In this document: positions 10,874 to 32,746 of the stretch, piece by piece
Layout: each line of letters starts with the position of its first letter
Numbering within the stretch: the stretch's first letter is position 1
IMG/VR virus record: IMGVR_UViG_3300032020_001000
Span: 1-64,000 of that record
Direction: 5' to 3' (one strand)
DNA length: 64,000 nt
Source of the DNA: a virus
The notes under the pieces: generated by a model
Seen by the model: the letters and a program-made list of their open reading frames with translations, nothing else
What the model was told of the DNA's origin: nothing
Database searches by the model: none
Program-made: the position numbers and the translations under genes

Positions 10874-10982
10874 GCGCACGGCCGTTCGCTGCCCGGCGGC
10901 CCGAAAAGACAGTTCGGCCCGCGCGAGAACAGGCGCCCACGCCGGTTGACTTTGCCTGTCGTTGTGGTAACATCCGACTGTC
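10874..10982 (+). promoter_or_regulatory. Early promoter element, copy 2
   Basis: GCGCACGGCCGTTCGCTG box; TTGACT(10946)-16-TAACAT(10968) with TGTGG extension. Confidence 0.7.
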
Positions 10983-11018
10983 CGACAGGGCGGGCGGGAG
11001 CCCAGAGAGGAGCGGACG

Positions 11019-15158: not shown

Positions 15159-15334
15159 ACCAATCAGACTGCTAGAGGCAAGCCGAGTGACCGCTTACTC
15201 ACCAACCAGGGAGGCATTCACACCGAGCGCCGCGAGTTCGTCGGGGCCGGCCCCCCCCGCAGGCTTGTCTCTAGCAGGATTCGCCTTCGCAGGATCGGGC
15301 CGGCCCTGGCGGCCCAAGGAGCAAACCGCACAGC

Positions 15335-15378
15335 TCGGGAGCAGGAGGTCGGCGGTTCAAATCCGCCCGCCCCGACCA
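15335..15378 (+). other. attP core: 3' half of tRNA-Pro(CGG)
   Basis: TCGGGAGCAGGAGGTCGGCGGTTCAAATCCGCCCGCCCCGACCA contains the anticodon loop, T-arm and CCA; no 5' half; next to the integrase. Confidence 0.85.
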
Positions 15379-15546
15379 GCCTCATCTAACCCCTTCATGG
15401 CGGGATATCACCCGCATCCCAGTTTTCGGCCTCGCATCGGGCACAGAACCGCCCCGTACCTCGCAGTCCTGATACTCAATCTCCATCTTGCCGCCGGGCG
15501 CGGAATGACCCTATTGGGAGCAAACTGCCGACCTTGCGGAGGAGAC

Positions 15547-16476
15547 ATGGAGAACCTTGACCACGTAGTCCAGTTCTTGCGATGCGAGCAGGCGGCGAAG
15601 GCGCCGGCCACGGTGCGGAACCGCCTGCGGGCCCTCGAGCGGTATGACCGCTGGTTGTCAGGCCGCGACGGCACCACCGGAGCAACCGCCACCAAACTGG
15701 ACCTGGCCGAATATGTGGCTGACTTGCGCGAGCATTATCCGCCCGCCCACGTCAACATCCACGTCTCGGCCCTGCGCGTCTATTACCGCTGGCTGGCCGA
15801 CATCGAAGCGCGCCGAGACAATCCTGCCCACGGCCTGCGGTACCTGGCCGCCCAATCCCGGCCCACGGCCAGCCTCGCGTCGGATGAGGTACATGCGCTG
15901 CTGCGATTTGCCTCGCGGGCGCGGGCAGCGCGTTTCGGAACCCACCGCGCGGCCGTGCTCGTCTTGGTGCTCGTCGATAGCGGCATGCGCATCGGAGAGG
16001 CGCTCCGGCTGCGCATGATGGATGTGAATCTCCTCGAGAACCACATTCTCATCACCGCAACGAAGACGCGGTCAGTTCGCCTCGCCCCGATCTCGCCCAC
16101 GCTGCGGCCGCACCTTCTGGCGTACCTCAAGCGGCGCAGCGAGCACCTGCGCGCCCGACATCTGGGGGATTGCGGCGCCCTATTTGTGAGCGAGCAGGGA
16201 TGCCCCTGGCCGGTCAACGGAGCCGAGCGCGGCTGCCGCACGGTGGCGAGCCTGGCGGGACTGACGAGGCGGCTACATCCACACTTGCTGCGCCACACCT
16301 GGGCGACCCTGAGCCTCATCAATGGCGCGCCGATGCCGGCGGTGATGATGCTCGGCGGGTGGCGCAAACTGGCGACGGTGCAGCGCTACACGCAGATGAG
16401 CGCGCGCCAATTGGCCGACGTGCAAGCATCCAGTTCGCCGCTGGGACGCGCGAGCCAACTGCGGCTGATCGCGTAG
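15547..16476 (+). CDS. int: Tyrosine integrase/recombinase
   Basis: SGMRIGE (R), HLLRHTWAT (HxxR), LGGW and TVQRY (Y); SAM-like N-terminal domain; GGAGGAG RBS. Confidence 0.92.
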   Translation: MENLDHVVQFLRCEQAAKAPATVRNRLRALERYDRWLSGRDGTTGATATKLDLAEYVADLREHYPPAHVNIHVSALRVYYRWLADIEARRDNPAHGLRYLAAQSRPTASLASDEVHALLRFASRARAARFGTHRAAVLVLVLVDSGMRIGEALRLRMMDVNLLENHILITATKTRSVRLAPISPTLRPHLLAYLKRRSEHLRARHLGDCGALFVSEQGCPWPVNGAERGCRTVASLAGLTRRLHPHLLRHTWATLSLINGAPMPAVMMLGGWRKLATVQRYTQMSARQLADVQASSSPLGRASQLRLIA

Positions 16477-16898
16477 AGGGAGAGATCGATGAACCTGTGG
16501 ATGAGCCGTGACGAGTATGAGGCGACGATGGTCGCCAGCCAGCGTGAGGCGCGCCTCTTCCGGTGCCTGTTGCTGGCATTTGCGGGGCTGCTGATGGTGG
16601 ATGTGTTGGCGCGCGGGCTGGCGCGCGCGGTGGGTTGGCTCCCCTGATCAAACACCGCGGCGCAGAGCGCCGGAAAGGGGGTCGGAATCGATGTCGCAGA
16701 GGGGTGCGACAATGATGACGGACGCGCAGCGCGCGTTCCGGGCGGGGCGCGGGGCCCCCCTCGCCGGTCATCTGGAACTGGCCGGTGGCCCGCGCCCCCC
16801 AAAATCAATGGCCCCGGGGGCGCTATCCTCGGGGCCATCAGTACCGGAGCCTCTCGTGCTCGGTGGTTTGGCTCAAGTATAACCCGCGAGAGGTCTCC

Positions 16899-17067
16899 TG
16901 ATAGCTCAACGAGGTCGCGAAGAGGTGATGGCACAGATGGATCAAGCAAGGCCGGCAGTTCCGACTGCCGGGCCCCGGGCGCCTGTACGCCCGCACGCCG
17001 ACGGAGCGCAGGAGAGGCGGGAATCCTGTGCCGGTCTCGGCAATTGGCCGGAGAAAAATGAGGCTAC
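16899..17067 (+). ncRNA. Orphan copy of the putative guide-RNA scaffold (3' end of the tnpB/cas12f-like gene)
   Basis: Matches 32091-32259 except for 8 substitutions, several of which preserve hairpin pairing. Confidence 0.6.
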
Positions 17068-17235
17068 GGTCTAGTGGGGCGCGCATTCACGGCCAACTAC
17101 AGGCAGGCGGCCCCTGTGCGCTCGTGCCCCTGGGGTGTAGTGGGGCGCGCATTCACGGCCAACTACAGGCGCTCGCTCGCATAGGACGCGTTCTCAACCG
17201 CTGTAGTGGGGCGCGCATTCACGGCCAACTACAGG
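17068..17235 (+). CRISPR. Mini CRISPR array, copy A (three 36-nt repeats, two 30-nt spacers)
   Basis: Repeat GSTSTAGTGGGGCGCGCATTCACGGCCAACTACAGG at 17068, 17134 and 17200; identical to 32260-32427. Confidence 0.88.
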
Positions 17236-17263
17236 GCCAACTACAGGGAGAGGAGACGATGAG

Positions 17264-18436
17264 ATGGAGCAGCAAGCAAAAGCGAACGGCGGGCTGGTAG
17301 ATTTCCACGACCTTGAGCCCGGCTTGTACCACGTGGCAACGCCGCGCGATATTGAGGTCGTCATGGAGGAGGTGAACCTGCGCGAGGCCGACCACTTCTG
17401 GATCGACAAAAAACGCCAACAGGTCCGCGGCGAGTGGCAGGATGTGATCCTGGGCCTGCGCACCTCGACCGATGGTCTGCGCATCCAGGCCGAGGCGCTC
17501 GGGGTGCATGTCGTGAGCCGGATCGTCGAGATGAACCAGAAGTACTGCCGCGCCGAGGCCACCGGCTATCGGCTGCGGCCCGATGGATTCCTCGAGATCT
17601 TTCGGTCGACCAAGGAATATGACCTGACGGCCGAGCTGGCCAAGGCGGCCCTGAAAAAAGTGCCGCGCAACAAAGACGAACGGCCGGCGGCGGCGACCTC
17701 GCAAGCGCTCGCGAAAATCGAGACCGAGGCCGGCGCATTGGCGCTGGTCAGCACGCTGCCGCAGACTGCGCAAGTGGAGGTGCTGCAGGCGCGGCTCGAG
17801 GTGCAGGCGCACCGGCTCGGCCTGTGCGAGACCAAGGCCGCCAACCGTGTCCTGCGCTACTACATTGGCAAGGCCGGCGGCATCCTCAAGGCGCAGCCGG
17901 GATTCAAGCAGATGAAGATCGAGCTGCGGCATGCCGTGCTGATGCGCCGGCTCGACCCGGCAGCACTGCGCGCCGTTACCGACTCGCTGTTCGCGGCACA
18001 GGCGCCCGCACCCCAACCCGCCCCACCCACGCCCCGCGCGACCGAAGCCCAACCCGGACCCGAGGTGGAGCGCACCGCCACGAGCGATGGGGGGGAGGCC
18101 ACAGAGGATGCGGAGGTCCTGCGCGAGGAGGCCGCGGGCGAAGCGCAGGCGATGGATGATGAGCAGGAGGATGATGGGGGCGCCAATGATGAGACCGCGG
18201 ATGAGCCCGGGCCATACGAGCAGCCCGAGCGAGTCGATCCGCATACCGGCGAAATGCAGGCCGGCGAAGGCCAGCCAACCCTCGGGGACATCATACCCTG
18301 TGGCGACTGCCAGAGGCCCCTGACGGCCAAGGAGATCGCTTTCTGTCAGAGCGAGCGCGGCCGCGCGGTCTTCGGCGGCGCCAATTGGTGCTATTCCTGC
18401 CAGCCGAAGCACAAGCAGCAAGGAGGAGCGGCATGA
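17264..18436 (+). CDS. Phage protein, possibly for single-strand annealing or recombination
   Basis: Globular N-domain, acidic linker and C-terminal CxxC...CxxC; lies upstream of sbcD/sbcC. Confidence 0.5.
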   Translation: MEQQAKANGGLVDFHDLEPGLYHVATPRDIEVVMEEVNLREADHFWIDKKRQQVRGEWQDVILGLRTSTDGLRIQAEALGVHVVSRIVEMNQKYCRAEATGYRLRPDGFLEIFRSTKEYDLTAELAKAALKKVPRNKDERPAAATSQALAKIETEAGALALVSTLPQTAQVEVLQARLEVQAHRLGLCETKAANRVLRYYIGKAGGILKAQPGFKQMKIELRHAVLMRRLDPAALRAVTDSLFAAQAPAPQPAPPTPRATEAQPGPEVERTATSDGGEATEDAEVLREEAAGEAQAMDDEQEDDGGANDETADEPGPYEQPERVDPHTGEMQAGEGQPTLGDIIPCGDCQRPLTAKEIAFCQSERGRAVFGGANWCYSCQPKHKQQGGAA

Positions 18437-18795
18437 GCGGCGGCCGCGCACTCGAGCAGAACGAGTCCGTAGCCTGCACGGAGTGCGGGTATGTCTGTCG
18501 CGTCATGGTGTGGGATCGGGGCCACGACAGGCTCTGCTATAACTGCATCGAGGCTTACGACCGGCGCGCCAACACTCGCATAGCGAGGCCCAACCCTGAG
18601 CAAACATCACACAAGGGGCTGCCGCCTGTGGGGACTGCGCTCCAGGCGCACTACAAGGGTCAGAGCTACGCAGCTCAGGTGACGGAGCGCGGTGTCGAGT
18701 ATGGCGGTCAGGCATATCGGTCGCTGACCGCCGCAGCGCAGACTATCACGCATGGACCGGTGAGTGGCCCGCGATTCTGGGAGGTACGAGGATGA
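18433..18795 (+). CDS. Zn-finger plus DUF2924/RAMA-like domain protein
   Basis: LPPVGTAL..YKGQSY..YRSLTAAAQTIT..SGPRFW. Confidence 0.65.
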   Translation: MSGGRALEQNESVACTECGYVCRVMVWDRGHDRLCYNCIEAYDRRANTRIARPNPEQTSHKGLPPVGTALQAHYKGQSYAAQVTERGVEYGGQAYRSLTAAAQTITHGPVSGPRFWEVRG

Positions 18796-18988
18796 GTCGG
18801 GTCGCGTGGCGGCAGAACTGCCGACGCTGCCTATTCTGCGATGATGAGATCATGCGGCGGGGGCTCATCCCCGGCGGCTGCCCGCTGGATCACCTCGGCC
18901 GGCCGATCCATCCGAAGCGCGTGAAGCGGTCAATGCCGGTCAACTGGCGATGCTCGAACTTCAGGCCGCGGCAGCCGGAGGCTGCGGT

Positions 18989-19333
18989 ATGAAGTATACG
19001 CACAAGCAGCGCATCCTGGACCTGCTTGCCGACCGCCAATGGCATTCCACGCCAGAGCTTAATGCCATCTGCTGGAGCTTCGGCCAGCGGTTGTGGGATC
19101 TGCGGCGGGAGGGATATGCATTTGAGAAGCGAGTGAAGCAAACGAGGCCGCGCATCGAGGAGTGGAGACTCATTGCAATGCCCTCAGCGATGGCAGAGGA
19201 GTTGGCGCCAGCGCCTATCCCGCAGAGGCGCCGCGCAGTCGTCGCGGCCAGCGGGAGCATGCGCCCGGCCTTGACTATGTGGCCACCGCGAGCGATGAAT
19301 GACGAGGGGCAAGGGGAGCTGCCATGGCCATAG
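18989..19333 (+). CDS. Winged-HTH protein
   Basis: KQRILDLLADRQWHSTPEL..RLWDLRREGY. Confidence 0.6.
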   Translation: MKYTHKQRILDLLADRQWHSTPELNAICWSFGQRLWDLRREGYAFEKRVKQTRPRIEEWRLIAMPSAMAEELAPAPIPQRRRAVVAASGSMRPALTMWPPRAMNDEGQGELPWP

Positions 19334-19566
19334 ACTCTGCAACACCGACGCCGCCCGCCGAGGGCAGCTTCAATAAGTACCTGTTCCACAGCGGCAGCTT
19401 TGTGACCGGAATGGCGCGGGCGATTCAGTGTGCCGATCCAGTGAATCGCGCTAGGTTGCGGCTTGCATTCCCGCAGATGATTGCGGCCATCGAGCACCAT
19501 GATTGGGATGAGGCGCCGCCGGGGTTCGCGCCACGCTACAACGCGGACAAGGATGGTGCAGCATGA
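19324..19566 (+). CDS. Hypothetical phage protein
   Basis: GSFVTGMARAIQCADPVNRARLRLAFP. Confidence 0.6.
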   Translation: MAIDSATPTPPAEGSFNKYLFHSGSFVTGMARAIQCADPVNRARLRLAFPQMIAAIEHHDWDEAPPGFAPRYNADKDGAA

Positions 19567-19967
19567 AGGATTATATCGGCATCCGCAGCCAGGATGCCTG
19601 CCGCGTCTATGTCGAGGAAGACGGCGTGCGGTGGCCGCTCGAACACCTCGTCTGTCATTCGCCGACCGGTCTCGAATGGGGCTATGGCGGGTGCGGTCCG
19701 GCCGACCTGGCGATCTCGCTGATCGCCGACGCCGATCCTGCGCTGGCCTGCCCCGGTCGGGTGCCTCCGGTCGAGCCATCGCTCTATGAATCCTTCAAGC
19801 GCGATGTCGTCTGCTCTCTGCCGCACGACGGCTGGCGCATTAGCGCGGTGGACGTCCGGCGGTGGATCGAATGTGACACGATGCTGGATGCGGATGATGC
19901 CCGGCGGCTGACGATTGTGCAGATCCACCCACTGGTAGCCGAGGGCGGGATGGAGGGTAAGGTATGA
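19563..19967 (+). CDS. DUF6166-like protein
   Basis: HSPTGLEWGYGGCGPADLA. Confidence 0.65.
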   Translation: MKDYIGIRSQDACRVYVEEDGVRWPLEHLVCHSPTGLEWGYGGCGPADLAISLIADADPALACPGRVPPVEPSLYESFKRDVVCSLPHDGWRISAVDVRRWIECDTMLDADDARRLTIVQIHPLVAEGGMEGKV

Positions 19968-21220
19968 AGGTCATCTGTACGGGAGATTGGCATATCGGGG
20001 ACGCCCGAACCTTGCGCGATGCCCAAGGACGCAACCAGCGCCTCATGGACTTTGCGCGATGTGCCCGCTTCGTGATTGAGGACGGGATCGCGCGGGGCGC
20101 CGAACTGATCCTGCACGCTGGCGACATTTGGAATGGCCCACGCCCGACACCGCTAGAGACGCGACTAGCCAAGGACGCATTCGATGTGGCGCTGGCGGCG
20201 GGCGTGCCTGTGCTCGCGATTGTGGGCAACCATGACATGCCGCGCTCGCCGGCGGAATATCATGCGCTCGACCATCTGCGCGACACCCCCGGGCTGACCA
20301 TTGTTGACCGGCCCTGCCTATTAGGGTTTGCGCTTGGTGATGCTGAACCCATGCTGAGCCAAGTGGCGGCCATCGAGGCATGGGAGGGCCCTGCCTTTGG
20401 CGCATTGTCGCTCCAGATCGCTTGCCTGCCTTGGCCCAACAAGTCGCTGCTGCTACAGGATGCCGACGTCCGCAAGCTCGGGCCGGGCGAGGTCAACCTG
20501 CTCGTGCGCGAGCGCATGATGGATGTCGCGCGCGCACTGGCCGGGCAGTTGCGGCCCGACGTGCCCAGCATCCTGCTGGCCCACTGCAGCCTCGATGTGG
20601 CAGCGGCCGGGACGCAGGATCGGCTGATGATGCTCGGTGGCGACTGGACGCTGAATGCCGCGGAGATCGCCGCGCTCGGTTTCACCTACGTCGCCCTCGG
20701 CCACATCCACAAGCCGCAGCAGATCGCAGGCAGTCTCTGGTACAGCGGCAGCCCCGAGGCCTGCACATTCGGCGAGGAGGGCGAGGCCAAGCAGTACCTT
20801 CTCGTGGACATCGCGCCGGACGACCCCGAGGGCATCGAGATCGAGCAAGTCCCCACGCCGTACCGCAACTTCATAACCATCGACGCGGCTGCGGGTTTCA
20901 CGACATGCACTGAGGAGGTCGGCGGCGCCATCGTGCGGCTGCGCCTACCCGAGGCACAAATGAATAACGCGAACACACTGCGCACGGCGCTACTTGGTGC
21001 AGGCGCGCTCGAGGTCAGCATCGAGATCGAGCGTGCCGAGTCGCAGCGGCGGGCAGGCGCGCTGGAGGTCTCGCACGGTATGGAGGTCGAGCCCGCGCTG
21101 CGGGCCTGGATCGCGCAGCGGCCCGACCTGGAGCCGCTTGCCGATGGCCTGGTGGCGGAGGGCCTTGCTATTGATCGCGGTCTGAGCGATCATCCTGAGC
21201 CGCGAGGAGCCGAGGCATGA
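19964..21220 (+). CDS. sbcD: SbcD/Mre11-like metallophosphoesterase nuclease
   Basis: GDWHIG, HAGDI, VGNHD, YVALGHIH and YSGS. Confidence 0.9.
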   Translation: MKVICTGDWHIGDARTLRDAQGRNQRLMDFARCARFVIEDGIARGAELILHAGDIWNGPRPTPLETRLAKDAFDVALAAGVPVLAIVGNHDMPRSPAEYHALDHLRDTPGLTIVDRPCLLGFALGDAEPMLSQVAAIEAWEGPAFGALSLQIACLPWPNKSLLLQDADVRKLGPGEVNLLVRERMMDVARALAGQLRPDVPSILLAHCSLDVAAAGTQDRLMMLGGDWTLNAAEIAALGFTYVALGHIHKPQQIAGSLWYSGSPEACTFGEEGEAKQYLLVDIAPDDPEGIEIEQVPTPYRNFITIDAAAGFTTCTEEVGGAIVRLRLPEAQMNNANTLRTALLGAGALEVSIEIERAESQRRAGALEVSHGMEVEPALRAWIAQRPDLEPLADGLVAEGLAIDRGLSDHPEPRGAEA

Positions 21221-22382
21221 CCGATCTCGAGTTCTTTATGCACCGCGTGCGAGACACCGGCCGTGGTCATAATATCGGCGAGCTACGGAAGGCCATCTAT
21301 CGCATTGCCAGCACCGATGATGCACAGCAGTTTTTCCGTGGTGAGGAGATTGCGAGATCAAACATCGGCTACCTATTGGGATACCTCAACGGCGAAGAGC
21401 GGCGGCGCAAGGCGGCTTTCTGGGTATCGGCCTGTGGTGTAAGGCATCCCATCTTTGGCTCACAAGCTCACCGCCGGAGCGATGATTCCGGCCCGCCCGA
21501 GGTGGGCGGATGAGTTCCTTCCTCGATGATGTGGGTTTGTTGATTGCAGAGACGACACAGTGTGCCGAGTGCGGCACAGACAGGCCGCCGCAGGCGTGGA
21601 CATCAGGCGGCGCGATCCACATCAACTATGGCGGCGGTCGCGGGAAGTGGCTGCGGTTCTGGAATGGGAGCCTGGGATGGGAGGCGCTGCCCGACCCCGA
21701 GGGTCCGCGCGCCTGGTGCCCAGAGTGCAGGCGCAAGCGCGCAGCGCAACTGGACCGGACGCGCCAACGAGCGGTCGCGGAACGAATGCGAAGGGAGAGC
21801 GAGCCACATGGCTGAGCGCACGATTCAGTGTTACATCCAGAGCATCGAGAATACTCTCCTCGAGGTTGGGGGCGCCCTGAACCTTGAGGACTGGAGTGGG
21901 GTCTGCCAGCTTCTGGAGGGCATCGAGGAGGACCTCGAGGCCGCTAGGCTCATCGCCGAGGGCCACGAGGAGGCGGGACAGCGAAAGGAGGGGGAAGGGC
22001 TTGATATTGAGCTGCCTTTGCGCGATGAATCATCACCAGGAGGCGCGGCATGAGCGAACACACGCCCGGGCCGTGGCGCGTCGAACCGGGGCGGGAAACC
22101 CGCGTTGGGGCCGACATTGTGATTGTCTCTCGGAACGGATTGGTCGCAATCGCATGTACCATCCATGAGGGGGCCGTCAACGCCGAGGCCAACGCTCGCC
22201 TGATCGCCGCCGCGCCGGAGATGCTGGCGGCGCTGGAGGCAGCCGAGGCACTGCTCAATGAGCACGAACATTGCCTGCGAGAGGACTGCACAAATCCAGG
22301 ATGCGTAGTTTATCGTCAAGCGAGAGCCGCCATCGCCAAGGCGAGAGGCGGTGCAGAGGACCCAGGAAAGGCAACGGGATGA
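21217..22382 (+). CDS. Four small hypothetical genes (21217-21513, 21510-21815, 21808-22053, 22050-22382)
   Basis: Overlapping stop/start coupling; the last has the common phage HTPGPW...ANARLIAAAP pattern. Confidence 0.55.
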
Positions 22383-24808
22383 GACCGCTTAGTCTGAGGC
22401 TCGACAACTTCCAGAGCTATAGGGGCCCGCACGAGCTTGACCTGCACGGGATCAACCTCGCCATACTGAGCGGCCCCAACGGCGCGGGCAAGTCCTCGAT
22501 CATCGATGCCATACGCTATGCCCTGTGGGGATATGCTCGCGCTGGCGCCGATAGCGTCGTCACCGAGGGCGAGAACGTCGGGCGGGTGGAATTCGAGTTC
22601 GCGCTGGGGGCTGACCACTATCTGGTCAGCCGTCAGCGGAATCGCAAAGGGGGTGGCGGGACAGCGCTGAGTTTCCAGAGCGTCATCGGCGACATCCTCC
22701 CACACGGGCGGCTCAACAACATAGTGCTCGATGGCAAAACGGTCGGGGAGACGCAGGCCAGCATCGAGCATGTCCTGCGCATGACCGATGATCTCTTCAC
22801 CCAGACTGCCTGTGCCAACCAGGGGAATGCTGCCGCCTTCTCCCAGGCCCGGCCCGCCGACCGCAAGCGCGTGCTTGGCGATATCCTCGACCTGGCGGCA
22901 TGGGAGCGCCGGGCCGAGGCCGCGCGGCAGGCATCGCGGGAGGCGCAGGGTCGGATTGATCGGGCGAGCGCCGATATCCAGGCTGCCCAGACTGAGGCCG
23001 CAAAGCAGCCGGACATCGAGGCTCAGATCGCAACCAACGCCGAGCGCATCGCCTATGCCGAGCGCGACCAGCAAGGCATCCAGGCCGACCTAGCCACAGT
23101 GCAGGAGCAGCGGGTCGCCGCGATCGCACTGCGGGATGGCGCAGTGCGCAAGAGCGAGGAACTGCAGGAGGCTCAGGGCCGGTGGCGGCTGATCGAGAGC
23201 CAGGTCAATGACCGTGCTGCGCGGCTGCGGAATCTCCAGCAGGTCACTGCTGACCGCGTCAATGTCGAGCAGGCGCTGGCGCAGGCTATCGCAGCGGCGG
23301 AGCGCGCCGAGGAATTGGCGGACGCGCAGCGCCAGGCCCAAGAGATCGCGCATGAGGAAAAGCTAATTGTCGAACGAGCGGCCACCGCCAAGCGCGAGCA
23401 TGAGGCAGAGATCGCCCGGGTCACCGAGGCACTCAGAGGTATCAAGCGGGACTATTCGCACCAGGTGCAGGCGCTCGATACCGAGGTCGCGCACATCCGG
23501 GAGGTTCATCTCCATCGGGTCGCGCAACTCGACGACCAGCACGAGCGGCTCGCCAGGCAGGCGGAAGTGCTGGACGAGGTGCCGTGCGCCAACCCGGTTG
23601 ACGAGGCCACGCGCCCTTCGTTCTTCGCCATCCGAGACAAATGCCCGCTGATCGCCCAGGCACGCGAAGCCGTGGCGCAGATCGGCGCCGTGTACGCAGA
23701 CCTTACGGCCGCCCGGGCAGCGGCTCCCTGGGCGGAGCGGCAGGCGGAGCTGGACGCCCTCCGCGGCCAGGCGAGCCAGATTGGGGCACCAGAGGCCGCC
23801 AGGCTCGCGCTGCTCGAGCGGGACGACCCACTGGCGCAGATCAGGGCCGACAGCGCCGCCCTGGCCGCCCGGCGCGCAGCGCTGGGCTACGTGGCGGGCA
23901 CTTGGGAAGAGGCTCGTCGCGAGGCGGATAAGCGCCCGGCGCTTGAGATCCGCATGCGCGAGATCGAGGTCGCCGCGGCGCAGGCAGCGGAGCTGCAGGC
24001 TGCGCTGGATGAGGCGCGTCGGGCGGCAGCCGACCTGGGCGAGCGCGTCGCCCAAATCCAGTCGGAGATGCTCGACCCCGCCGCGATCCAGCGCAAGCTG
24101 AGCGATGTTGACGCGGAAATCCATCGCTGCGAGACAGCGCTGGTTGATCTGCGCACGACGATCTCCCGCGCGCAAGCGCAGGCGGGTGCGCTGCACGAAC
24201 GCCTCGAGGCGGCTCGCCGAGATGCCCGGCATGCAGACGAACTGCTGGAACTGCTGGAGACGCTCGAGCGCCGGCGCCAACTGCTCGACCTGCTCGGCAA
24301 CCCCCGTAGCGGCGCATTCTCACGGTCAGGCATCCCCGCACTCCTCATTGACCAGGCCGTGCCCGAGCTCGAGGCCGCGGCCAACGAGGTGCTGCGCGAG
24401 CTGAGCGATGGCCGGATGTCGGTGGCGCTGCACACGCAGCGCGAGACGCAGGCAAAGACTCTCAGCGAAACCCTCGAGATCATCGTCGCCGACGAGCGGG
24501 GAGAGCGGCCGTACGAGACGTTCTCCGGCGGCGAGGCAATGAGGGTTGACCTGGGCCTCCGCATTGGACTCTCGCGGCTGCTGGCAGCACGCGCGGGCGC
24601 GCGCTGCGAGATGCTGGTGATGGATGAGACCGCGGCCCCTCTCGATGCAGATGGCCGGCGCCTGTTCGTGCAGTGCCTGGGCCGGGTGGCGGAGCGCTTC
24701 GCATGCGTGCTGTGTATCAGCCACGTCGAGGAACTGAAGGACTTGTTCCCGGCGCAGATCGCTGTGAGCAAAGGCGATGGCGGCAGCCGCCTGGAGGTGT
24801 TGCGGTGA
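22379..24808 (+). CDS. sbcC: SbcC/Rad50-like SMC ATPase
   Basis: LDNFQSY, GPNGAGKS, long coiled coil, FSGGE, LVMDE and ISH. Confidence 0.92.
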   Translation: MRPLSLRLDNFQSYRGPHELDLHGINLAILSGPNGAGKSSIIDAIRYALWGYARAGADSVVTEGENVGRVEFEFALGADHYLVSRQRNRKGGGGTALSFQSVIGDILPHGRLNNIVLDGKTVGETQASIEHVLRMTDDLFTQTACANQGNAAAFSQARPADRKRVLGDILDLAAWERRAEAARQASREAQGRIDRASADIQAAQTEAAKQPDIEAQIATNAERIAYAERDQQGIQADLATVQEQRVAAIALRDGAVRKSEELQEAQGRWRLIESQVNDRAARLRNLQQVTADRVNVEQALAQAIAAAERAEELADAQRQAQEIAHEEKLIVERAATAKREHEAEIARVTEALRGIKRDYSHQVQALDTEVAHIREVHLHRVAQLDDQHERLARQAEVLDEVPCANPVDEATRPSFFAIRDKCPLIAQAREAVAQIGAVYADLTAARAAAPWAERQAELDALRGQASQIGAPEAARLALLERDDPLAQIRADSAALAARRAALGYVAGTWEEARREADKRPALEIRMREIEVAAAQAAELQAALDEARRAAADLGERVAQIQSEMLDPAAIQRKLSDVDAEIHRCETALVDLRTTISRAQAQAGALHERLEAARRDARHADELLELLETLERRRQLLDLLGNPRSGAFSRSGIPALLIDQAVPELEAAANEVLRELSDGRMSVALHTQRETQAKTLSETLEIIVADERGERPYETFSGGEAMRVDLGLRIGLSRLLAARAGARCEMLVMDETAAPLDADGRRLFVQCLGRVAERFACVLCISHVEELKDLFPAQIAVSKGDGGSRLEVLR

Positions 24809-25019
24809 GGACGATCATTGGCATCGGCGGATGGTGGTTGGCGGGGTGGTGGGTGCTGGACGGCCCACTGATGTGGCGGGTCGTGTGGATGGCGGTGGGA
24901 TTCGCCATCATCCTGTGCATCGGCGGCTGGGAGGAGAATGCGAGCGTGCGCAGACGAGCCGCGCGATCCCTGCGCCGGAATGCGCACAAGGTCCTGGGCC
25001 AGGACATCAGCGTCAAGTT

Positions 25020-25118
25020 GGGCGGCGGGTAGTGTATGCGTTAGCGATTGGCGCATGCCTCCATCGGCGCCGGAAGACGCCGCCGGGCGAATACGGTGCC
25101 GATTGCTGCCCGCCGCCC
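25020..25118 (+). ncRNA. 99-nt structured element, copy 1
   Basis: 13-bp closing stem and two internal hairpins; 94/99 identical to 32969-33067. Confidence 0.55.
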
Positions 25119-25146
25119 GCAATGAAAATCGAGAGGAGCCGACAGC

Positions 25147-25485
25147 ATGAAGATCGACATTAACAAACTGAGTCCCACCGAATTGAGCGACGTGGCCGAG
25201 GCCGCGCGTGAGCGGCTGGGCGCGGTGACCGAGGCGCAGAAGAACCTCGTCATAGCGAGGGAGGGTCTGCGGCGATCCATTGTGGAGAGGGATGGAGCCC
25301 GGGGCGATGTCCGCATCTACCGGGCGGAGATTGCGGAACTGGAGCAGATCATCAGCCCGAAGCGGCGACGCAAGGCGAAGGGGGCGCCGGATGAGGAGTG
25401 CGCCACGACGGTTGAGAGCGATGGCGCTGGCGCGGTTCCTGCGACAGTCGCGCCCAGATCGCGGAAGCAGCGGAGCCAGCCTTAA
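25147..25485 (+). CDS. Coiled-coil protein with a basic tail (paralog of 32462-32746)
   Basis: INKLSPTEL...RAEIAELEQIISPKRRRKA. Confidence 0.65.
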   Translation: MKIDINKLSPTELSDVAEAARERLGAVTEAQKNLVIAREGLRRSIVERDGARGDVRIYRAEIAELEQIISPKRRRKAKGAPDEECATTVESDGAGAVPATVAPRSRKQRSQP

Positions 25486-25558
25486 CAGGGCGGCGGGCGT
25501 GATCTCGCCGCTTGACTTTTCTGCCGACCGGAGTGACAGATAACAGCCCGCGCTGCGG

Positions 25559-25873
25559 ATGAAAGGAGTCGATGGGATGCCAGCATTTATGGGCACGGTC
25601 AAGGGCACGAAGCTTGTCTACGTGGACGAGAAAGAGGAGGGGCAGATCATCAGTACCCATCCCGAGTGTATCGTCGGGCTGATCGCGCAGGACGAGAATC
25701 CACATGAGCTCGCGGACGCTCTCGGCGCGCTGCATGGCCGGCGCGTGCGCGTGCAGATCACGCTGGAGCAGCCGGAGCTCTTCCCGGAGCGCGCCGCCGA
25801 GCAGACGGGAGCGCGGACCGCCGCGGAGATGGCAGAGCATGCAGCAGATCTGGAGCCGATGCAGGAGGAGTAG
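25559..25873 (+). CDS. Hypothetical protein
   Basis: ORF with RBS (alternative start 25577). Confidence 0.55.
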   Translation: MKGVDGMPAFMGTVKGTKLVYVDEKEEGQIISTHPECIVGLIAQDENPHELADALGALHGRRVRVQITLEQPELFPERAAEQTGARTAAEMAEHAADLEPMQEE

Positions 25874-25884
25874 CAGCAACGGCA

Positions 25885-26838
25885 ATGGAGGGCAGCGTGG
25901 CCGGTCGCACGATTTACAGCAGCATCTGGGATGAGCCCTGGTTTCACACATTCACTCCCGACGCCAAGTTGCTGTTCCTCTATTTCGTCACCTCTCCGTT
26001 GGCGAACCCATCGGGAATCTACAGCATATTGCCGGGCCTCATCGCCGCGCACACGGGCTTGCGTGGCGTCCGCCTGGATCGCGCCCTAGATGGCATCACG
26101 GAGCGTTGCTGCTACGACCCCGACGATGGGGTGGTCTGGGTCAAGAACTTCCTGCGCGTCCAGGCCGGCGAAGTCAAGGCCGGATCGAAGTTCCTTATCT
26201 CGGCACTCAACCATGCCCTGCGCGGGCCGAAGCGGTTTTTGCGCGACTTTCTGGAGCACAATCGGGACCTCCTCGGGGGGCTGCCAGCATACCCTACGGA
26301 TACCCTATCGGTAGGGTATCGAGAGGGTATCGATACCCCCAAGAGAGAGGGACTAGTCCCTCCCCCTCTCTCAGGCTCAGGCTCAGTCCCTCCCTCAGGC
26401 TTAGTCACAGACCCAGGCTCAGAGGGAGGGAGGGGAGGCGCGAAACCGCTCCGCGTTTCCGCGCGGTCGCCCGAGCAAATCGCCGCCGACATCGAGGCCA
26501 TCCTCGCAGCCACCGGATTCCGGGATAGTTACCAGGCCCTGGCAGATATACTGGCGGCCGAAAACAAGCGCGGGAAAGTGGCCGCTTCGCGGTTGCTCAC
26601 AACCCTGCTGCAGCCGCTATGGCACGAGGAGCAGCAACGAGCCGGGGATGAGGCTGGTCGCATCGCCTTCGAGTACGGGCTGCAGGCGGCGATACAAGCC
26701 GGCGCCCCAAACGTCAACTACGTCAAGCGCGCGACGGAAGGCGCGCTGAAGCGAGGAACCCGTGCAGAGACTCGGGCGGGTGTTGGAATCCGGCGCAGTG
26801 ATGCCGGCCCCAGGGAGAAGGATTGGCATGAGGTCTGA
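25885..26838 (+). CDS. Phage replication initiator (replisome organizer-like)
   Basis: N-terminal IWDEPWF..KLLFLYFVTSP..SGIY; internal iteron-like repeats; followed by a DnaC-like gene. Confidence 0.7.
   Translation: MEGSVAGRTIYSSIWDEPWFHTFTPDAKLLFLYFVTSPLANPSGIYSILPGLIAAHTGLRGVRLDRALDGITERCCYDPDDGVVWVKNFLRVQAGEVKAGSKFLISALNHALRGPKRFLRDFLEHNRDLLGGLPAYPTDTLSVGYREGIDTPKREGLVPPPLSGSGSVPPSGLVTDPGSEGGRGGAKPLRVSARSPEQIAADIEAILAATGFRDSYQALADILAAENKRGKVAASRLLTTLLQPLWHEEQQRAGDEAGRIAFEYGLQAAIQAGAPNVNYVKRATEGALKRGTRAETRAGVGIRRSDAGPREKDWHEV
26289..26438. repeat. Putative replication-origin iterons
   Basis: ATACCC(T) at 26289, 26300 and 26333; inverted AGGGTAT at 26313 and 26324 (~11-bp spacing); TCAGGC repeats follow. 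Confidence 0.55.
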
Positions 26839-27775
26839 CTTCGTTGCCGCCGATCCGAAATGCCCGGCGTGTGGCGCGTCGGCGAAGCTGGTGCAGGACC
26901 CGGTGCTCGATGAGATCGCGGCATTCCTGGCTTGCGACTGCTATGGGCCAGGCGACTATCCATTGGCCGAGGCGACGCCGCCCCCGCGGCCAGCCAGCGG
27001 GCCTTGCACTGACTGTGGCGCTGCGGAGACGCGGACCTGGGTTGCGGCTATCCGGCGTTGGCGCTATATGCGTGATTGCACGACCGAATGCGCCTGCGCC
27101 GCTTGCGAAGAGCGCAGGGACCGGGAGACACATGCTGCCGCCCAGGCCGAGATGGCCCAGCGACTGGTGGCCATATTGGACTGCGAGCGGCGCCTGCGGG
27201 CGGCCGGCATCCCCCGCGCCTACGGGCGCTGCGAGATCGCCACGTACCAGGCGCTCCCCGAGGTTGCGACAGCGAAGCAGCGGGTGATTGAGTTTGCGGG
27301 GCGTCTGAGTGATCACCTGAACGCCGGCCGCGGCCTCTGGTTCATCGGGCCGACCGGGACCGGCAAAACCCACTTGGCGGTGGCGGTGCTCAAGCTGGCG
27401 ATTGATGCGGGCTGGGGTGGCCTCTACTGCTGGACGCGGGATTACCTGCGTGACTTGCGCGCGTCCTACGACGACCGCCAACTCGACCCGCTGCCCCGCC
27501 TCTTGGGGGCATCTGTTCTGCTGCTCGACGACGTGGGAGAGGCGCGCCTGGACCGCAACCCCGAGTGGGTGCGCGAGGCCCTGATTGATGTACTGGGTCA
27601 CCGCCACATGGACCTGCGGCCAACATTGGTGACCAGCAACCGCAGTCGCCGAGAGCTGCGCGAGGACCTCGACGAGCGGATCACCAGTCGGCTGGCAGAG
27701 ATGTGCGAAGTGGTGGTCCTGGAGGGTCCGGATTATCGGCTGCGCGAGGGCGCGGGAGACAGGAGTGCCGGGTGA
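26828..27775 (+). CDS. DnaC/IstB-like AAA+ helicase loader
   Basis: GPTGTGKTHLA, LLLDDVG, TLVTSN and RITSRL; N-terminal Cys clusters. Confidence 0.9.
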   Translation: MRSDFVAADPKCPACGASAKLVQDPVLDEIAAFLACDCYGPGDYPLAEATPPPRPASGPCTDCGAAETRTWVAAIRRWRYMRDCTTECACAACEERRDRETHAAAQAEMAQRLVAILDCERRLRAAGIPRAYGRCEIATYQALPEVATAKQRVIEFAGRLSDHLNAGRGLWFIGPTGTGKTHLAVAVLKLAIDAGWGGLYCWTRDYLRDLRASYDDRQLDPLPRLLGASVLLLDDVGEARLDRNPEWVREALIDVLGHRHMDLRPTLVTSNRSRRELREDLDERITSRLAEMCEVVVLEGPDYRLREGAGDRSAG

Positions 27776-30327
27776 CTGAGGCAATGCCGACCCTGAGCCA
27801 GAAATGCGGGCTGTGTGGTCGGGCATTCGAGCAGGGCGAGGAGCGGCAGGGCGCCGGCGACATCGGGGCGCAGGCTATCAATGTCCGCTGCTCAGTGCCG
27901 GCGGCAATCTGCATCGTCGGCTGCGTGCTTCTCGCATTGCGCCATCCCGACAACGAGGGCCCATGCTCGATGCCAGCGCGCGTCTTTGCGCGAGGCCTAG
28001 CCGAGGCGATTATCCGGAGCGGTCTCATTCCGGTGCCACAGGCAGTGTACCAAGAATGGGCGCGGGAGCTGGGGATCGCTGGGCCGCAGCGAGGCAATGC
28101 ATGAGCGACGGCGAGGAGATCATCGTCATCTGCCTGCCAACATCCTGCGGCGCGCCGCGCGCGCCCTCCGAGCGGCGCGAGTGCGCGAACTGCGGGCGGG
28201 CAATCTGGCTGCACACCGAGATGGTTCCTGTGGCCACGCGTTGTATCTGCATGGCCTGCGCCGCGCGGCTGCCCGTCCCGCCTGCCGTAGTGCATTCGGT
28301 AACGCGGAGTTACCTGCATTCGCGCCGATACTCCGATGCACTCATCGACCGCATCCTGGGCGCATTCAACCGAGCCATCGCGGAAGCGGGGCAACCGCCA
28401 GAAGGAAAGCCCTGATGCCCTGGAAGCGCCTGCGATGCAAAGGCTGCGGGGCGGTGCAGCGCATCTATCGCCGTCCCAGCCGGAACAAACCGGCCGGTCA
28501 CATCAAGCACCTGTGGTACTACCAGTGCAAGGCGCGTATCCATCATGTCGAGCTGAGCCCGCACGAGGCAAATGACGGGCGCGTGGGGCCGCGACCTATC
28601 GGCGCAAAGATCGGAGGGAAGTGATGGGAGCATTCGACGGATTCAAGGTCGGCAGCCGGTTGATCCTGACGCATGATGCGCGGGATTTTGCCGCCGCGGG
28701 CGATGAGGTCGAGGTGGTGGCCATGCTGCAGCCGGGCGATTGCGACGGCGCGATCCGGGTGCCCGACGATGGCATCCGGGTCAAGCGAGTGGGCGGCCGG
28801 ATTAGCGAGCTCCACCCCGAGGAAATGGAGTTCGTCTGGGCCTGCGGCCGGCGGTATTTTGAGTGAATGGGGTGATGCCATGAGCCGACGGATTCCGCCA
28901 TGCAAGTTCTGCGGCCGCGATCTGCGCCGTCTCAAACCGCGTATGCTGGTGAGCGAGGGCGGCCGGGGCAAACAGAAGCACTGGGCACTGTGCGCCGATC
29001 CGGACTGCATGAGAAAGTTCCGCGAGGAGACCAGGCAGGGCTTGCACGCATTGAGCCGAGGCGAAGAGCCAGGAGCGAGCACATGACCACCTACCCCGAG
29101 CACGAAAAGATGCAGGCGGTGCAGGAGAAGAGCCAGGCGTGCGGCGAGTTCGTCGAGTGGTTTCAGCAGCGTGGGATTCATCTCGCCGAATACACAACTT
29201 TCACCCACACGTACAAGGCGCTCAACGGTCAGACACGTGAGATCAAGCGCGTGGAGCTGGCGCTCAGCCGGCGCTTGTTGCAAGACCTGCTTGCCGAGTT
29301 CTTCGGCATTGACCTCCAGCGCCTTGAAGCGGAAAAGCGCGCGATGCTGGCGGCGGCGCGGCTCGAGAGAGGAGGCGCTTGATGGCTCAGGAGATCCTGC
29401 GCGCAGCGATCATCCTCGCCATGTGCGACCTGGAATATCCGCTGCCTGCTGAGCGACCGTGGCAGAGTGAACATGCCCGTCAGGCATTGGCGACGGACCG
29501 CGAGCAGATCGACCTGGAGCGCCAGCAGTTCGGCATGAGCTTCGCCGACAGCACGGTCGGCGAGCTGATCGAATGGCTGCTCGCGGCGATCGGCGATGGG
29601 CGGGTGCGGCTTGTGGCGCGGGGGCAGAGTGATGGCGGCTACGGTCTATGACCTCGAGATCTTCTTGGAGGGACCGAACTGATGAGCAGCAATCCGACAC
29701 TAGCGCAAGTAACACACCAACTGCGCCAAGCGCACGCCAGCTATGATGCCGTCGTGCTGCGCGAACGCATCATCTGGGAGCAAGCCCTCCGCCATGCCGA
29801 GACCGCCTATAACGCTGAACTCACCGCCCATGATGCCTTATACGCGCGCGCCATAGAGGCGGCCGCCGAACGAATGAGAGTCATTGTCAAGCCCACCTGG
29901 GAGCAATACCGCACCGCGATGCACGACGCGGATATGGATCTCCAGGCAGCCATTCGGAAGTTCGAAGAGACGGCAGCGAGCTTACGCGGCGAAAGAGAAC
30001 GGAAGCCGAGCAAAGCCAAGGGCCAGATGGTTAGTAAAGACACAGAGGCAAAGTCATGACGGCTAGCGTGCGCACGCGATGACGACAAAGCAGCGGCTTG
30101 AGGAAGTCCTGCGGGCAGCCGGCCTGCATGAGATGGCCGCGAATGCGCTGCTCGGTGGCTACGATGATTTCGAGACCACGAGTCCGACACCAATCCATGA
30201 CCTGGTGCGGGATCTCAATGCTGCGGGCCGGCCCGATCTGGCGCAGCGGGCTATCAATGGGGAATGGGATGCAAGCCCCGATGAGGCGCGCGAATGGTTT
30301 AAACGCGAAGGCAGATATCTCCGATGA
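27772..30327 (+). CDS. Cluster of small hypothetical genes (e.g. 28621-28866, 29083-29382, 29379-29651, 29682-30059, 30079-30327)
   Basis: Translationally coupled short ORFs, several with CxxC; individual starts uncertain. Confidence 0.45.
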
Positions 30328-30406
30328 TGTGGGCGGCGGGAGGCACAGGGCGTGGCGCGGCCGAGAACCGCCTGCGCCAGAGTCAGGAGGATTGGGGGTG
30401 CGAGGA

Positions 30407-30892
30407 ATGAGTAGGAGGGACCAGGGACTGACGCCGGAGGAGTTGGAGCAGGCAGTTCATCATGCGTTGCTGGCATTCAGCAACGAGCAGTTGGTGAGGG
30501 AACTGGAGCGGCGTTATGAGCACAATCACCCTCGCTACGCTCGATGGAAGCTACGACCTTCAGAGCTTGCGTTGGCGGCGCTGGACATGACTGGCGTGAT
30601 CCGTAGCAAGACCCATGAATTGCTAAAGGCGGAGATGAAGCTGCTTAAGCTGACCAAAAAGGACATGCTCCAGCAAGCGGCGATAGCGGAAGCCCAGGCA
30701 GAGGTGGGGGGAGACATTATCGAACTGGTCAAGCAACGCGACAACGAGATGCCAGCGTGGGACGGTTTACTCGCCGCCCTGAAGGAAAGACAAACGACGA
30801 TCAGTCGGATAGTAGAGCGCTACAGATTGCCCGCGCGCGCGAGGACGGATGAGCTGGCAAGCACCGAAGAGGCAGAGGGCAGCGTCCATTAA
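30407..30892 (+). CDS. Helical hypothetical protein immediately upstream of the TnpB/Cas12f-like gene
   Basis: ORF ends 18 nt before the nuclease start. Confidence 0.6.
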   Translation: MSRRDQGLTPEELEQAVHHALLAFSNEQLVRELERRYEHNHPRYARWKLRPSELALAALDMTGVIRSKTHELLKAEMKLLKLTKKDMLQQAAIAEAQAEVGGDIIELVKQRDNEMPAWDGLLAALKERQTTISRIVERYRLPARARTDELASTEEAEGSVH

Positions 30893-30910
30893 GACTAGAG
30901 GGAAGTACCA

Positions 30911-32266
30911 ATGGCATTCCGGCGGGGAAAAGCGAAGGCCGAAGGACGGATAATTGGGATTCGCTTCAAGGTGAGCGACCCGAAGCCGGCCGACCTGGCG
31001 ATGCTGAAGACGCTGGCAGCGCGCTGCCGCGAGTTGCGTTATCACCTCTTTGATTGGGCAGTCGCAAACGATGGTTCCGGGCCAGAGCACCTGCGCGCCA
31101 TGTATTACGAGGCCGCCCGCTTGGCGCCCGATCTGTCGGCAGACATGAGAGGCACGATTGCCGGGGAAATACGCACGGCGATCAAGCAGTATCGCAAAGT
31201 GCAGCGCCAGGACCCGCTGGCGCGCCCCTTCGAGTTCAAGCGCGTCATCATTCCGGTCAAGGTCTCAAGCATCTATGAGTTGGCGCCAGAAGGGGCGAAT
31301 GGTTATTGGCGGCTGCGTGTCGGACTATGGGCGAGGGGCGGCACTGAAGAAACCACGGCCAGTCTCCGTCTAGCCGCGGACACTAATCGCAACGGGGATG
31401 GCTATCAATTGGCGCACTACAATGCTGCGGTGGCCTGGGGACTGGAGGCAGGCTCCTCGCCGATAGGGGACGGTAAGATTGTGCTCCAACGCGGGAAGTG
31501 GCTCTACATTCAGGCCTTATCCTTGGCTCCGGTTATGGCGGTCGAGGGCCTGCGGGTTGCGGGGGTTGATGTGGGGCGCCATCATCTGGCAGTGGTGGCG
31601 ATGCCCGAGAACGGAAAGACGGAGTTCGTGGGGCGTTACAATTGGGTGCGCGACTTGATCGCCGACCGCTGGCGGAAGACTCGTCTCTATCGTGCGGGCC
31701 TGCGGAAGCGCGCCAATGCCGAAAGCGATAGGGCGGCTGACAAGACAAAGACAATCTGTCAGCAGGTGGCGGCTCGCGTCGCGGATGTGCTCGTGCAGTG
31801 GGAGGCCACGCACGTGGCGATGGAAGACCTGACCGGCATGAGGGAGAGACTCGCGGAAAAGTTCGGCGAGGGCACCGAGGGAGCCGTCGTCAATGCGCGC
31901 TTCCCCTACTATAGATTGCAGGCGGCGATTGAGTATGCTTGCGGGAAGGTTGGGATTGCCACCGTCAAGGTGGAGGCCAAATACAGTTCGCAGACGTGTT
32001 GGCGCTGCGGAGAAAGGGGCAAGCGGGATGGGCTAGAGTTTAGATGCGACGAGTGCGGCAAGGAGCATGCTGATGCAAATGCGGCCCGCGTGATAGCTCA
32101 GCGAGGTCGCGAAGAGGTGATGGCACAGATGGATCAAGCAAGGCCAGCGGTTCCGGCTGCTGGACCCCGGGCGCCTGTACGCCCGCACGCCGACGAAGCA
32201 CAGGAGAGGCGGGAATCCTGTGCCGGTCTCGGCAATTGGCCGGAGAAAAATGAGGCTACGGTCTAG
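30911..32266 (+). CDS. tnpB: TnpB/Cas12f-like RNA-guided RuvC nuclease (451 aa)
   Basis: RuvC-I AGVDVG, RuvC-II VAMEDL, YSSQTCWRCG..FRCDECG Zn finger and RuvC-III HADANAARVI; D-E-D triad intact. Confidence 0.9.
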   Translation: MAFRRGKAKAEGRIIGIRFKVSDPKPADLAMLKTLAARCRELRYHLFDWAVANDGSGPEHLRAMYYEAARLAPDLSADMRGTIAGEIRTAIKQYRKVQRQDPLARPFEFKRVIIPVKVSSIYELAPEGANGYWRLRVGLWARGGTEETTASLRLAADTNRNGDGYQLAHYNAAVAWGLEAGSSPIGDGKIVLQRGKWLYIQALSLAPVMAVEGLRVAGVDVGRHHLAVVAMPENGKTEFVGRYNWVRDLIADRWRKTRLYRAGLRKRANAESDRAADKTKTICQQVAARVADVLVQWEATHVAMEDLTGMRERLAEKFGEGTEGAVVNARFPYYRLQAAIEYACGKVGIATVKVEAKYSSQTCWRCGERGKRDGLEFRCDECGKEHADANAARVIAQRGREEVMAQMDQARPAVPAAGPRAPVRPHADEAQERRESCAGLGNWPEKNEATV

Positions 32267-32427
32267 TGGGGCGCGCATTCACGGCCAACTACAGGCAGGC
32301 GGCCCCTGTGCGCTCGTGCCCCTGGGGTGTAGTGGGGCGCGCATTCACGGCCAACTACAGGCGCTCGCTCGCATAGGACGCGTTCTCAACCGCTGTAGTG
32401 GGGCGCGCATTCACGGCCAACTACAGG
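32260..32427 (+). CRISPR. Mini CRISPR array, copy B (three 36-nt repeats, two 30-nt spacers)
   Basis: Repeats at 32260, 32326 and 32392; the nuclease stop codon (32264-32266) lies inside repeat 1. Confidence 0.9.
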
Positions 32428-32461
32428 ACAGGGGAATAGGCAGACAGGAGAGGAGGATACG

Positions 32462-32746
32462 GTGATGCGAGTTAACGTTGGCAGGCTTAACCCGGACGAG
32501 TTGGCGGCACTGGTGACGGCGGGCGAGCAGCGCCTCGAGGACATGCGGAGGGCGGCGTCGCGTCTGCCGGAAGCGCAGCGGAACCTCGAGGAGGCCCTCG
32601 GGGAGCGCGATCGTATCAGCGCGGAGATCCGCGCACTGCGCGCAGAGATCGAGGGGCTGCAGAATACGATCAAGCCGAAGCGGCGGCGCAAGGCGACGCC
32701 CGAGGCCGCCGCAGAGGCCCCGGATGATGCCATTGCCGCCGAATGA
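32462..32746 (+). CDS. Coiled-coil protein with a basic tail (paralog of 25147-25485)
   Basis: VGRLNPDEL...RAEIEGLQNTIKPKRRRKA; GAGGAGG RBS. Confidence 0.65.
   Translation: MMRVNVGRLNPDELAALVTAGEQRLEDMRRAASRLPEAQRNLEEALGERDRISAEIRALRAEIEGLQNTIKPKRRRKATPEAAAEAPDDAIAAE

Follow-up and report, generated by a model that had tools for sequence, protein, structure and literature searches.

The 64,000-nucleotide (nt) stretch analysed here, hereafter the window (positions 1 to 64,000 of the IMG/VR virus record IMGVR_UViG_3300032020_001000), carries a candidate guide-RNA unit twice, once at the 3' end of a gene for a TnpB/Cas12f-like nuclease and once, at 16899-17247, with no nuclease gene attached. 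The nuclease-less copy is referred to as the orphan. It consists of a scaffold of about 170 nt, whose counterpart in the full locus also encodes the C-terminal tail of the nuclease, followed by an array of three repeats and two spacers. The orphan is tentatively interpreted, at somewhat less than an even chance, as a guide-RNA-only paralogue of a TranC/Cas12n-like locus that would give scaffold and guides in trans. This interpretation is preferred because the orphan is intact over 227 nt including both spacers, because it is placed between a TAA stop codon and a ribosome-binding site on the strand of its neighbours, because the region resembles an RNA, and because precedents exist. The features of the two loci are the following.

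16899-17070, + strand: orphan scaffold (copy A), corresponding to the last 172 nt of the nuclease open reading frame (ORF), codons 394-451; all eight differences from copy B lie in its first 110 nt.
17071-17235, + strand: orphan mini-array, with repeats at 17071-17103, 17137-17169 and 17203-17235 and spacers at 17104-17136 and 17170-17202; equal to the array at 32263-32427.
17236-17247, + strand: tandem duplication of the repeat end, 12 nt, an exact copy of 17224-17235.
30911-32266, + strand: TnpB/Cas12f-like nuclease (P0001), 451 amino acids (aa), with RuvC residues D220, E305 and D388 and a CxxC...CxxC zinc ribbon.
32091-32262, + strand: nuclease-linked scaffold (copy B), which also codes for the nuclease tail.
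32263-32427, + strand: nuclease-linked mini-array, three repeats and two spacers; the next gene (32462) lies 34 nt beyond.

Copy A (16899-17235) and copy B (32091-32427) align without a gap over 337 nt with eight differences, all of them transitions (16909/32101, 16954/32146, 16957/32149, 16964/32156, 16969/32161, 16972/32164, 17004/32196 and 17008/32200). The two arrays are identical, each with three repeats and two spacers at a period of 66 nt (duplicate family D2), and a pattern search for the repeat through the whole 83,861-bp record returned six matches, all in these two loci. The match is not a chance one, since the nuclease compared by tblastn with the same record recovered only its own gene and the orphan (E 2e-29). 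In the orphan, repeat 1 (17071-17103) has C for G at its first base. In the full locus, the TAG stop codon of the nuclease falls inside repeat 1 of the array. The 12-nt duplication is absent from copy B, where only its last 5 nt (ACAGG) recur past the final repeat. An earlier note, made from the sequence alone, had described a nuclease-less second copy of scaffold plus array, identical arrays and a 12-bp duplication of the repeat end at 17236-17247, and these three descriptions are accurate. It had placed the start of the copy right at the end of the RuvC-III codons; the copy does begin just past RuvC-III, the exact edge being codon V394, six codons after the aspartate D388. It had also counted eight substitutions in a 169-nt leader, which is the correct number, although they are confined to the first 110 nt of that leader instead of being spread across it.

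The edges of the unit bear on an account that is nearly as likely as the guide-RNA one, namely that the orphan is a neutral recombination relic. It would be what a deletion of the gene body left of a second or older nuclease cassette, or a by-product of module shuffling, and would have no role of its own, persisting through recency or through gene conversion with the full locus. This account sits poorly with the sequence upstream of the orphan, which bears no likeness to the nuclease gene (the best tblastn match there has an E-value of 0.05 and lies inside an integrase gene). A remnant of the nuclease gene upstream of the orphan was rejected on this basis, and the DNA upstream of the orphan shows no similarity to that upstream of the nuclease. 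A relic would also have to explain why the left edge lies so close behind the last catalytic residue and why the right edge retains the whole array.

The record being derived from a metagenome, the assembly was checked independently with Logan contigs from one public sediment-metagenome run of 2019, possibly the source sample, laid on 16300-17900. A contig over 16300-16939, which spans the junction on the left and has the A at 16909 peculiar to the orphan, shows no difference from the record; neither does a contig over 17206-17900, which includes the 12-nt duplication and the right flank. The flanks of copy B on the nuclease side and on the right side are found in contigs of their own, whose loose ends fall at 16899 and 17235. 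Both left and both right junctions are thus represented, each by its own contig, at similar depth, 31.9 and 42.7 for the left junctions and 40.2 and 38 for the right ones. Words from the repeat reach a depth of 255, which is six-fold at about 42.5 per repeat copy. The shared interval 16910-17101 is covered by a single contig of depth 64.2 that has the letters of copy B. By hand calculation, a depth of about 63 is expected if the B letters occur in one locus and about 85 if they occur in both; the observed value is near 63, so a popped bubble fits better than two identical loci. Two loci with different letters are the better fit to the contig data, and the second copy is real: both left and both right junctions are supported by independently built contigs. 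It is very improbable that there is a single true locus, with the second copy or the eight variant letters contributed by a co-occurring strain. Such an artefact would agree with the metagenomic origin of the record, with the B letters of the 16910-17101 contig and with the fact that contigs built from 31-letter words cannot join the left to the right flank across the 227-nt identical part. It does not agree with the four junction contigs, with the orphan's own letter at 16909 or with the depths of the repeat words and of the shared contig. As a separate observation, the contig on the integrase side of the orphan (15351-16939) has a depth of 31.9, compared with 38-43 for the three remaining flanks; some phages of the population may have a different version of this segment or none.

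The distribution of the eight differences is informative on the history of the unit. All of them lie within the first 110 of the 337 nt (p = 1.3e-4 for uniform placement), five being packed into 19 nt (p 0.017). Divergence in this part amounts to 7%, and the other 227 nt, both spacers included, show none. A divergence of 7% followed by 0% indicates that the two copies have a mosaic history: during or after the duplication, recombination or gene conversion took place at least once, the partner being either the other copy or the allele of a related phage. The earlier note had cautioned that most changes are also synonymous in the tnpB frame. This is the case for six of the eight, which are synonymous third-codon positions in the nuclease frame, and it is a stronger signal than the pairing discussed below. 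By hand calculation, at least six of eight would fall at third positions with a chance of about 0.02; the proportions of synonymous (pS) and nonsynonymous (pN) differences are 0.142 and 0.016, a ratio of 0.11. At the two replacement sites (A416/T and E429/G), the virtual translation of the orphan has T and G, the same residues as the nearest relative of the nuclease, P0002 (76% identity; a fragment of 256 aa, found on a JGI contig of 1048 bp), so that the orphan retains the older amino-acid states. Free drift of a non-coding copy since the duplication is not what is seen, since the changes do not extend across all codon positions and the array. The simplest account, drawn from comparison of the sequences, regards the first 110 nt as two coding alleles of the nuclease tail, one in each copy, that diverged in related phages or earlier in the lineage. 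They would have been brought together by recombination or gene conversion, with a crossover inside the duplicated unit. Because the differences are of the coding type, they inform on the scaffold of nuclease-linked coding alleles and not on selection on the orphan.

These observations also favor a relic, as the coding-type differences and the agreement with P0002 at both replacement sites suggest that the first 110 nt evolved in a gene, and the step from 7% to 0% shows that recombination has acted on these copies. The same holds for composition: 29682-32090, comprising the nuclease and its two upstream neighbours, has a G+C content of 0.585-0.62 and a G+C content at third codon positions (GC3) of 0.66-0.70, against 0.65-0.68 and about 0.8 in the rest of the record. 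This small compositional island fits a cassette moving between genomes. Other duplicated non-coding pieces (families D3 and D7) are present in the genome. On the other side, a useless 349-nt insert would flank 15 kb of genes for replication and recombination with perfect direct repeats of 227 nt, at a cost to the phage.

Both copies fold into the same set of hairpins, and the hairpin letters and the GCAGG/ACAGG pairing are as the earlier note gave them. In the RNAalifold consensus (55 pairs), the differences amount to one compensatory double change (G-C to A-U), four one-sided wobble changes and two unpaired positions, with no pair broken, so that six of the eight differences lie in kept pairs. 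Five changes fall in or beside hairpin 1; four of them keep pairs (the G-C to A-U double change and two wobble changes), and 16972 is a bulge or a broken pair depending on the fold. In a control with eight random transitions followed by refitting of the consensus, either copy being mutated uniformly or at synonymous sites only, 2-5% of the 400 trials run for each null placed at least six changes in kept pairs, and 0.5-12.5% of trials gave a consensus energy at least as good as the observed one. Threading of copy B on the minimum-energy fold of copy A breaks two pairs, which is ordinary (p 0.28-0.52 of 1000 trials). The covariation signal is modest and dependent on the fold, because the consensus control gives p 0.02-0.05 and the control on the own fold of copy A is unremarkable. 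The pairing-preserving character that the earlier note ascribed to the substitutions is therefore weakly supported by the consensus and not significant on the fold of copy A. Its choice of the + strand as the RNA strand is the likelier one: the consensus fold reaches -80.4 kcal/mol on + and -70.9 on -, a gain of 9.5, both copies contain G-U pairs, which on the opposite strand would read A-C, and all genes flanking the orphan are on the + strand. The nuclease tail is identical to that of P0002 at 48 of 51 positions, compared with 142 of 196 in the catalytic core (Fisher p 6e-4), and has a GC3 of 0.58 versus 0.72 in the gene body. Tail conservation, tail GC3 and the + strand fold are hints that the scaffold region acts as RNA besides its codons. 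At gathering score, Rfam returned in the window only a hammerhead located elsewhere, and in 31800-32500 it gave no match at E ≤ 10.

Synonymous differences and a frame open from an ATG could also indicate that the orphan encodes a free-standing 48-aa peptide equal to the nuclease C-terminal tail (ATG 16928 to TAG 17072-17074). This is hardly credible. The sole purine-rich stretch stands at 2 nt from the ATG, the aligned TnpB fold does not include the tail, and comparison of the tail alone with shorter proteins gave no match among the eight candidates scored. The synonymous bias, moreover, is accounted for if the changes arose in a coding copy.

IMG/VR classifies the record as a provirus; it is 83.9 kb long, its G+C content is 65% and CheckV puts its completeness at 100. 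The features neighbouring the orphan are listed below.

15187-16476, + strand: tyrosine integrase (PF00589, E 4e-27; phrog_1, E 5e-41), 423 nt upstream of the orphan.
16489-16647, + strand: small ORF of 52 aa directly after the integrase, with a ribosome-binding site of its own, a GC3 of 0.85 and a second half of hydrophobic appearance.
16601-16882, + strand: small ORF whose TAA stop codon (16880-16882) is in frame with the virtual tail, 16 nt before the orphan.
17264-18436, + strand: gene for a 390-aa protein, the first after the orphan, with no Pfam or PHROG family.

The TAA codon at 16880-16882 shuts off the upstream ORF from the orphan scaffold, with which it shares the frame. On the other side, the ribosome-binding site GGAGAGGAG of the 390-aa gene begins at 17247, thereby sharing one base with the end of the 12-nt duplication, and 16 nt separate the end of the orphan from the start codon. 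The copy thus fills the intergenic gap to within 16 nt on each side, which is not readily expected of a relic. The downstream gene heads a + strand block with SbcD-, SbcC-, DnaD- and DnaC-like genes, and the phage genes on the left side of the integrase include amidoligase-, amidotransferase- and helicase-like ones. For the 390-aa protein itself, weak ESM Atlas leads only (0.84-0.85) point to the single-strand annealing proteins RecT and Sak. The 787-nt intergenic region has no match among GenBank phages. No terminator-like site was found in 16300-17400; at the nuclease locus, one promoter-like and one terminator-like site were found, both on the - strand and within shuffle expectation. With neither promoter nor terminator at the orphan, its transcription, if any, would occur by operon read-through, as for copy B.

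The vicinity of the integrase raises the further possibility, an improbable one, that the copies act as DNA, i.e. as recombination sites, serving as the phage attachment site or bounding a 15.2-kb module (17248-32427) that could be excised, a segment carrying the SbcCD-, DnaD/DnaC-like genes and the nuclease. The integrase gene ends 423 nt upstream of the orphan, which occupies the only sizeable non-coding stretch nearby, the divergent-then-identical pattern resembles that of hybrid sites after a crossover in the identical part, and the contig on the integrase side has the lower depth (31.9 versus 38-43). Nevertheless, the integrase lies outside the repeat-bounded segment, and no extra junction or loose end is seen at the orphan besides the flanks of copy B (rare forms being lost from contigs). 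Nor is the segment a foreign island, since family D3 occurs both inside and outside it and the G+C content is alike on both sides. A search for relatives of the integrase in genome contigs gave 76 pattern matches, none of which was confirmed.

Several results weigh against a guide-RNA role of the orphan. No promoter-like site was found upstream of it, and no RNA run is among the public runs that contain the stretch; both points also favor a relic. The folding of either copy is no better than that of its dinucleotide shuffles (z -0.32 and -0.12), and copy B threaded on the fold of copy A loses two pairs, as with random transitions. The energy of a scaffold-repeat duplex is within the shuffled range, the fraction at least as good being 0.59, or 0.19-0.52 for the 5' 50 nt; an anti-repeat in the scaffold was considered and is not supported by these duplex energies against shuffled controls. 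The differences, six of them synonymous, look coding-driven and contain no hint of selection acting on the orphan, and the perfect identity over 227 nt may just reflect a recent copy or conversion. The seven inner letters proper to the orphan were not seen directly in the contigs. Finally, the orphan spacers are those of the full locus and add no new target.

If the guide-RNA interpretation is nonetheless retained, the orphan would be read through within the integrase/early operon, its RNA would be processed like that of the full locus and would load in trans onto the nuclease encoded at 30911-32266. The same two guides would be given, and as the arrays are identical the orphan could not widen targeting; the benefit would lie in dosage, in timing or in a guide supply that spares the 3' end of the nuclease mRNA. 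Such use in trans, which the earlier note had also proposed, is suggested by analogy, from the layout observed here and three precedents (Cas12n, PATE and TranC). It is more doubtful that the orphan is a dedicated guide-RNA gene, that is, a protein-free copy allowing guides to be made without cutting the nuclease mRNA and with a different timing, in the integrase/early operon, the duplicated unit marking the ends of the working RNA. If true, this would be a TnpB-like system caught splitting into separate protein and RNA genes. What the guides would recognize was sought in several collections. Against the 83.9-kb record, the spacers match nothing with fewer than 9 mismatches in 30 outside the arrays themselves; as exact 30-mers they are absent from IMG/VR viral contigs, and GenBank phages gave partial matches only (E ≥ 1), treated as chance.

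The partner protein is a member of the TnpB/Cas12 RuvC nuclease superfamily. It contains the Cas12f1-like TNB domain PF07282 (E 3.4e-16, above the family cut-off), and D220, E305, D388 and the four cysteines are invariant or nearly so in 84 aligned sequences. The model taken from the ESM Atlas has the TnpB fold over residues ~11-404 with TM scores of 0.67-0.71, a Pro/Ala-rich tail lying beyond, and the best match among solved structures is OsCas12f (9nzq, E 9.5e-11). The NCBIfam model guided_TnpB (NF040570) aligns only with residues 193-398 at 85.3 bits, below its curated cut-off of 100, and the N-terminal half has no family match. An IS200/IS605 or IS607 transposon was considered and rejected, as neither a Y1 nor a serine TnpA is found in the 83,861-bp record (PF01797 and PF00239, no match) and no matching upstream DNA accompanies the two copies. 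An adaptive type V CRISPR-Cas system was likewise rejected, with no match to Cas1 or Cas2 (PF01867 and PF09827) in the record.

Relatives of this nuclease are rare. Among 1.84 billion representative proteins, 1718 match at E ≤ 0.001 and only one, P0002, falls below 1e-30; homologue scoring of 8000 proteins retained two at E ≤ 0.001, one being the query itself. Searches for related loci with P0001 and alignment A2 gave 5, 596, 41 and 31 pattern matches, none of them confirmed. A degenerate pattern of the tail was found neither in metagenome contigs nor in viral contigs, the repeat core was not found in viral contigs, and the 13 GenBank phage records recovered were all below 60% identity and below 51% coverage. 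The next-nearest relative, P0003 (509 aa, on a 1659-bp Logan contig), shares 37% identity over 230 aa and likewise has a Pro/Ala-rich tail, which faintly resembles that of the nuclease. Because of this tail, the scaffold-in-tail layout may be older than the present phage.

Other elements of the genome were noted in passing. A 102-nt element (family D3) occurs twice, at 25017-25118 and 32966-33067, with 95% identity, one copy inside and one outside the segment between the scaffold-array copies. At 48374-48439 on the + strand, a 100-aa gene (48073-48375) is directly followed by a type II hammerhead ribozyme (RF02276, 53.3 bits, E 3.7e-8). The promoter-like segment upstream of this gene recurs at 10930-10986 with 81% identity (family D7).

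The significance of the orphan depends on which account holds. If it is used, the orphan would mark the bounds of the guide RNA (a scaffold of about 170 nt and the repeat) of a very rare TnpB-sized, array-bearing nuclease, and would show a guide supply uncoupled from a nuclease gene whose 3' end is the guide scaffold. The route proposed to lead from transposon TnpB to CRISPR-Cas12 has such uncoupling as one of its steps. Should the orphan be a relic only, it still records recombination between the nuclease cassettes of related phages. Either way, the two copies offer a two-sequence view of the scaffold positions that tolerate change.

Four kinds of known systems come close to this arrangement. 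The TranC nucleases resemble it in associating a TnpB-sized RuvC nuclease with a short CRISPR-like array without Cas1/Cas2 (10.64898/2026.03.27.714800; PMC13565253). According to the accessible parts of their descriptions, the TranC repeats measure 32-38 nt, the arrays comprise 3-20 repeats, and one described member is phage-borne, in a Caudoviricetes genome (10.64898/2026.03.27.714800). Their guide is thought to come from a split transposon right-end RNA. The 451-aa nuclease directly beside its array reproduces this layout, and it is by layout, not by placement in the clade, that the two are likened. They differ in that a clear anti-repeat is not found here, and a nuclease-less second copy of scaffold plus array is not mentioned in the portions of the TranC descriptions available. 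Cas12n is also TnpB-like, with a disordered C-terminus and a 170-nt trans-activating CRISPR RNA (tracrRNA) that overlaps the ORF, comparable to the leader of 169-172 nt in the present locus (PMC12216341). The tracrRNA of Cas12n, as described in the part of the source at hand, pairs with the repeat, whereas such pairing is not evident here; none of the PDB matches of the present nuclease bears the name Cas12n, the best being OsCas12f, and the accessible text on Cas12n contains no duplicated tracr-plus-array unit (PMC12216341).

The trans use that the orphan would need, by a nuclease encoded elsewhere in the genome, is reminiscent of the PATE elements, whose omega RNAs are reported in the available part of the source to depend on a TnpB encoded elsewhere, acting in trans (Meers et al., 10.1101/2023.03.14.532601). 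PATEs are, in the same partial account, bounded by transposon left and right ends and moved by TnpA. The orphan, in contrast, has no left-end counterpart, resides in a record without Y1 or serine TnpA and includes a repeat-spacer array; with neither left end nor TnpA, its assignment to PATE-like omega-RNA elements was rejected. Orphan arrays, viral mini-arrays and solitary repeat units share with it a short repeat-spacer unit in a virus away from cas genes (PMC10651486; PMC8616872). As presented in the accessible sections of these sources, these units borrow or block a host system, whereas here the cognate nuclease is encoded in the same phage, the orphan includes a scaffold derived from the 3' coding end of that nuclease, and its spacers duplicate those of the main array. 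No nuclease-less scaffold-plus-array copy for a TnpB-like or TranC nuclease is described in the literature searched, a body that excludes Jin et al. 2025 and supplements. Overall, orphan arrays and omega-RNA-only elements are known kinds, and the novelty of the present case is that such a unit is tied to a rare TranC/Cas12n-like phage nuclease.

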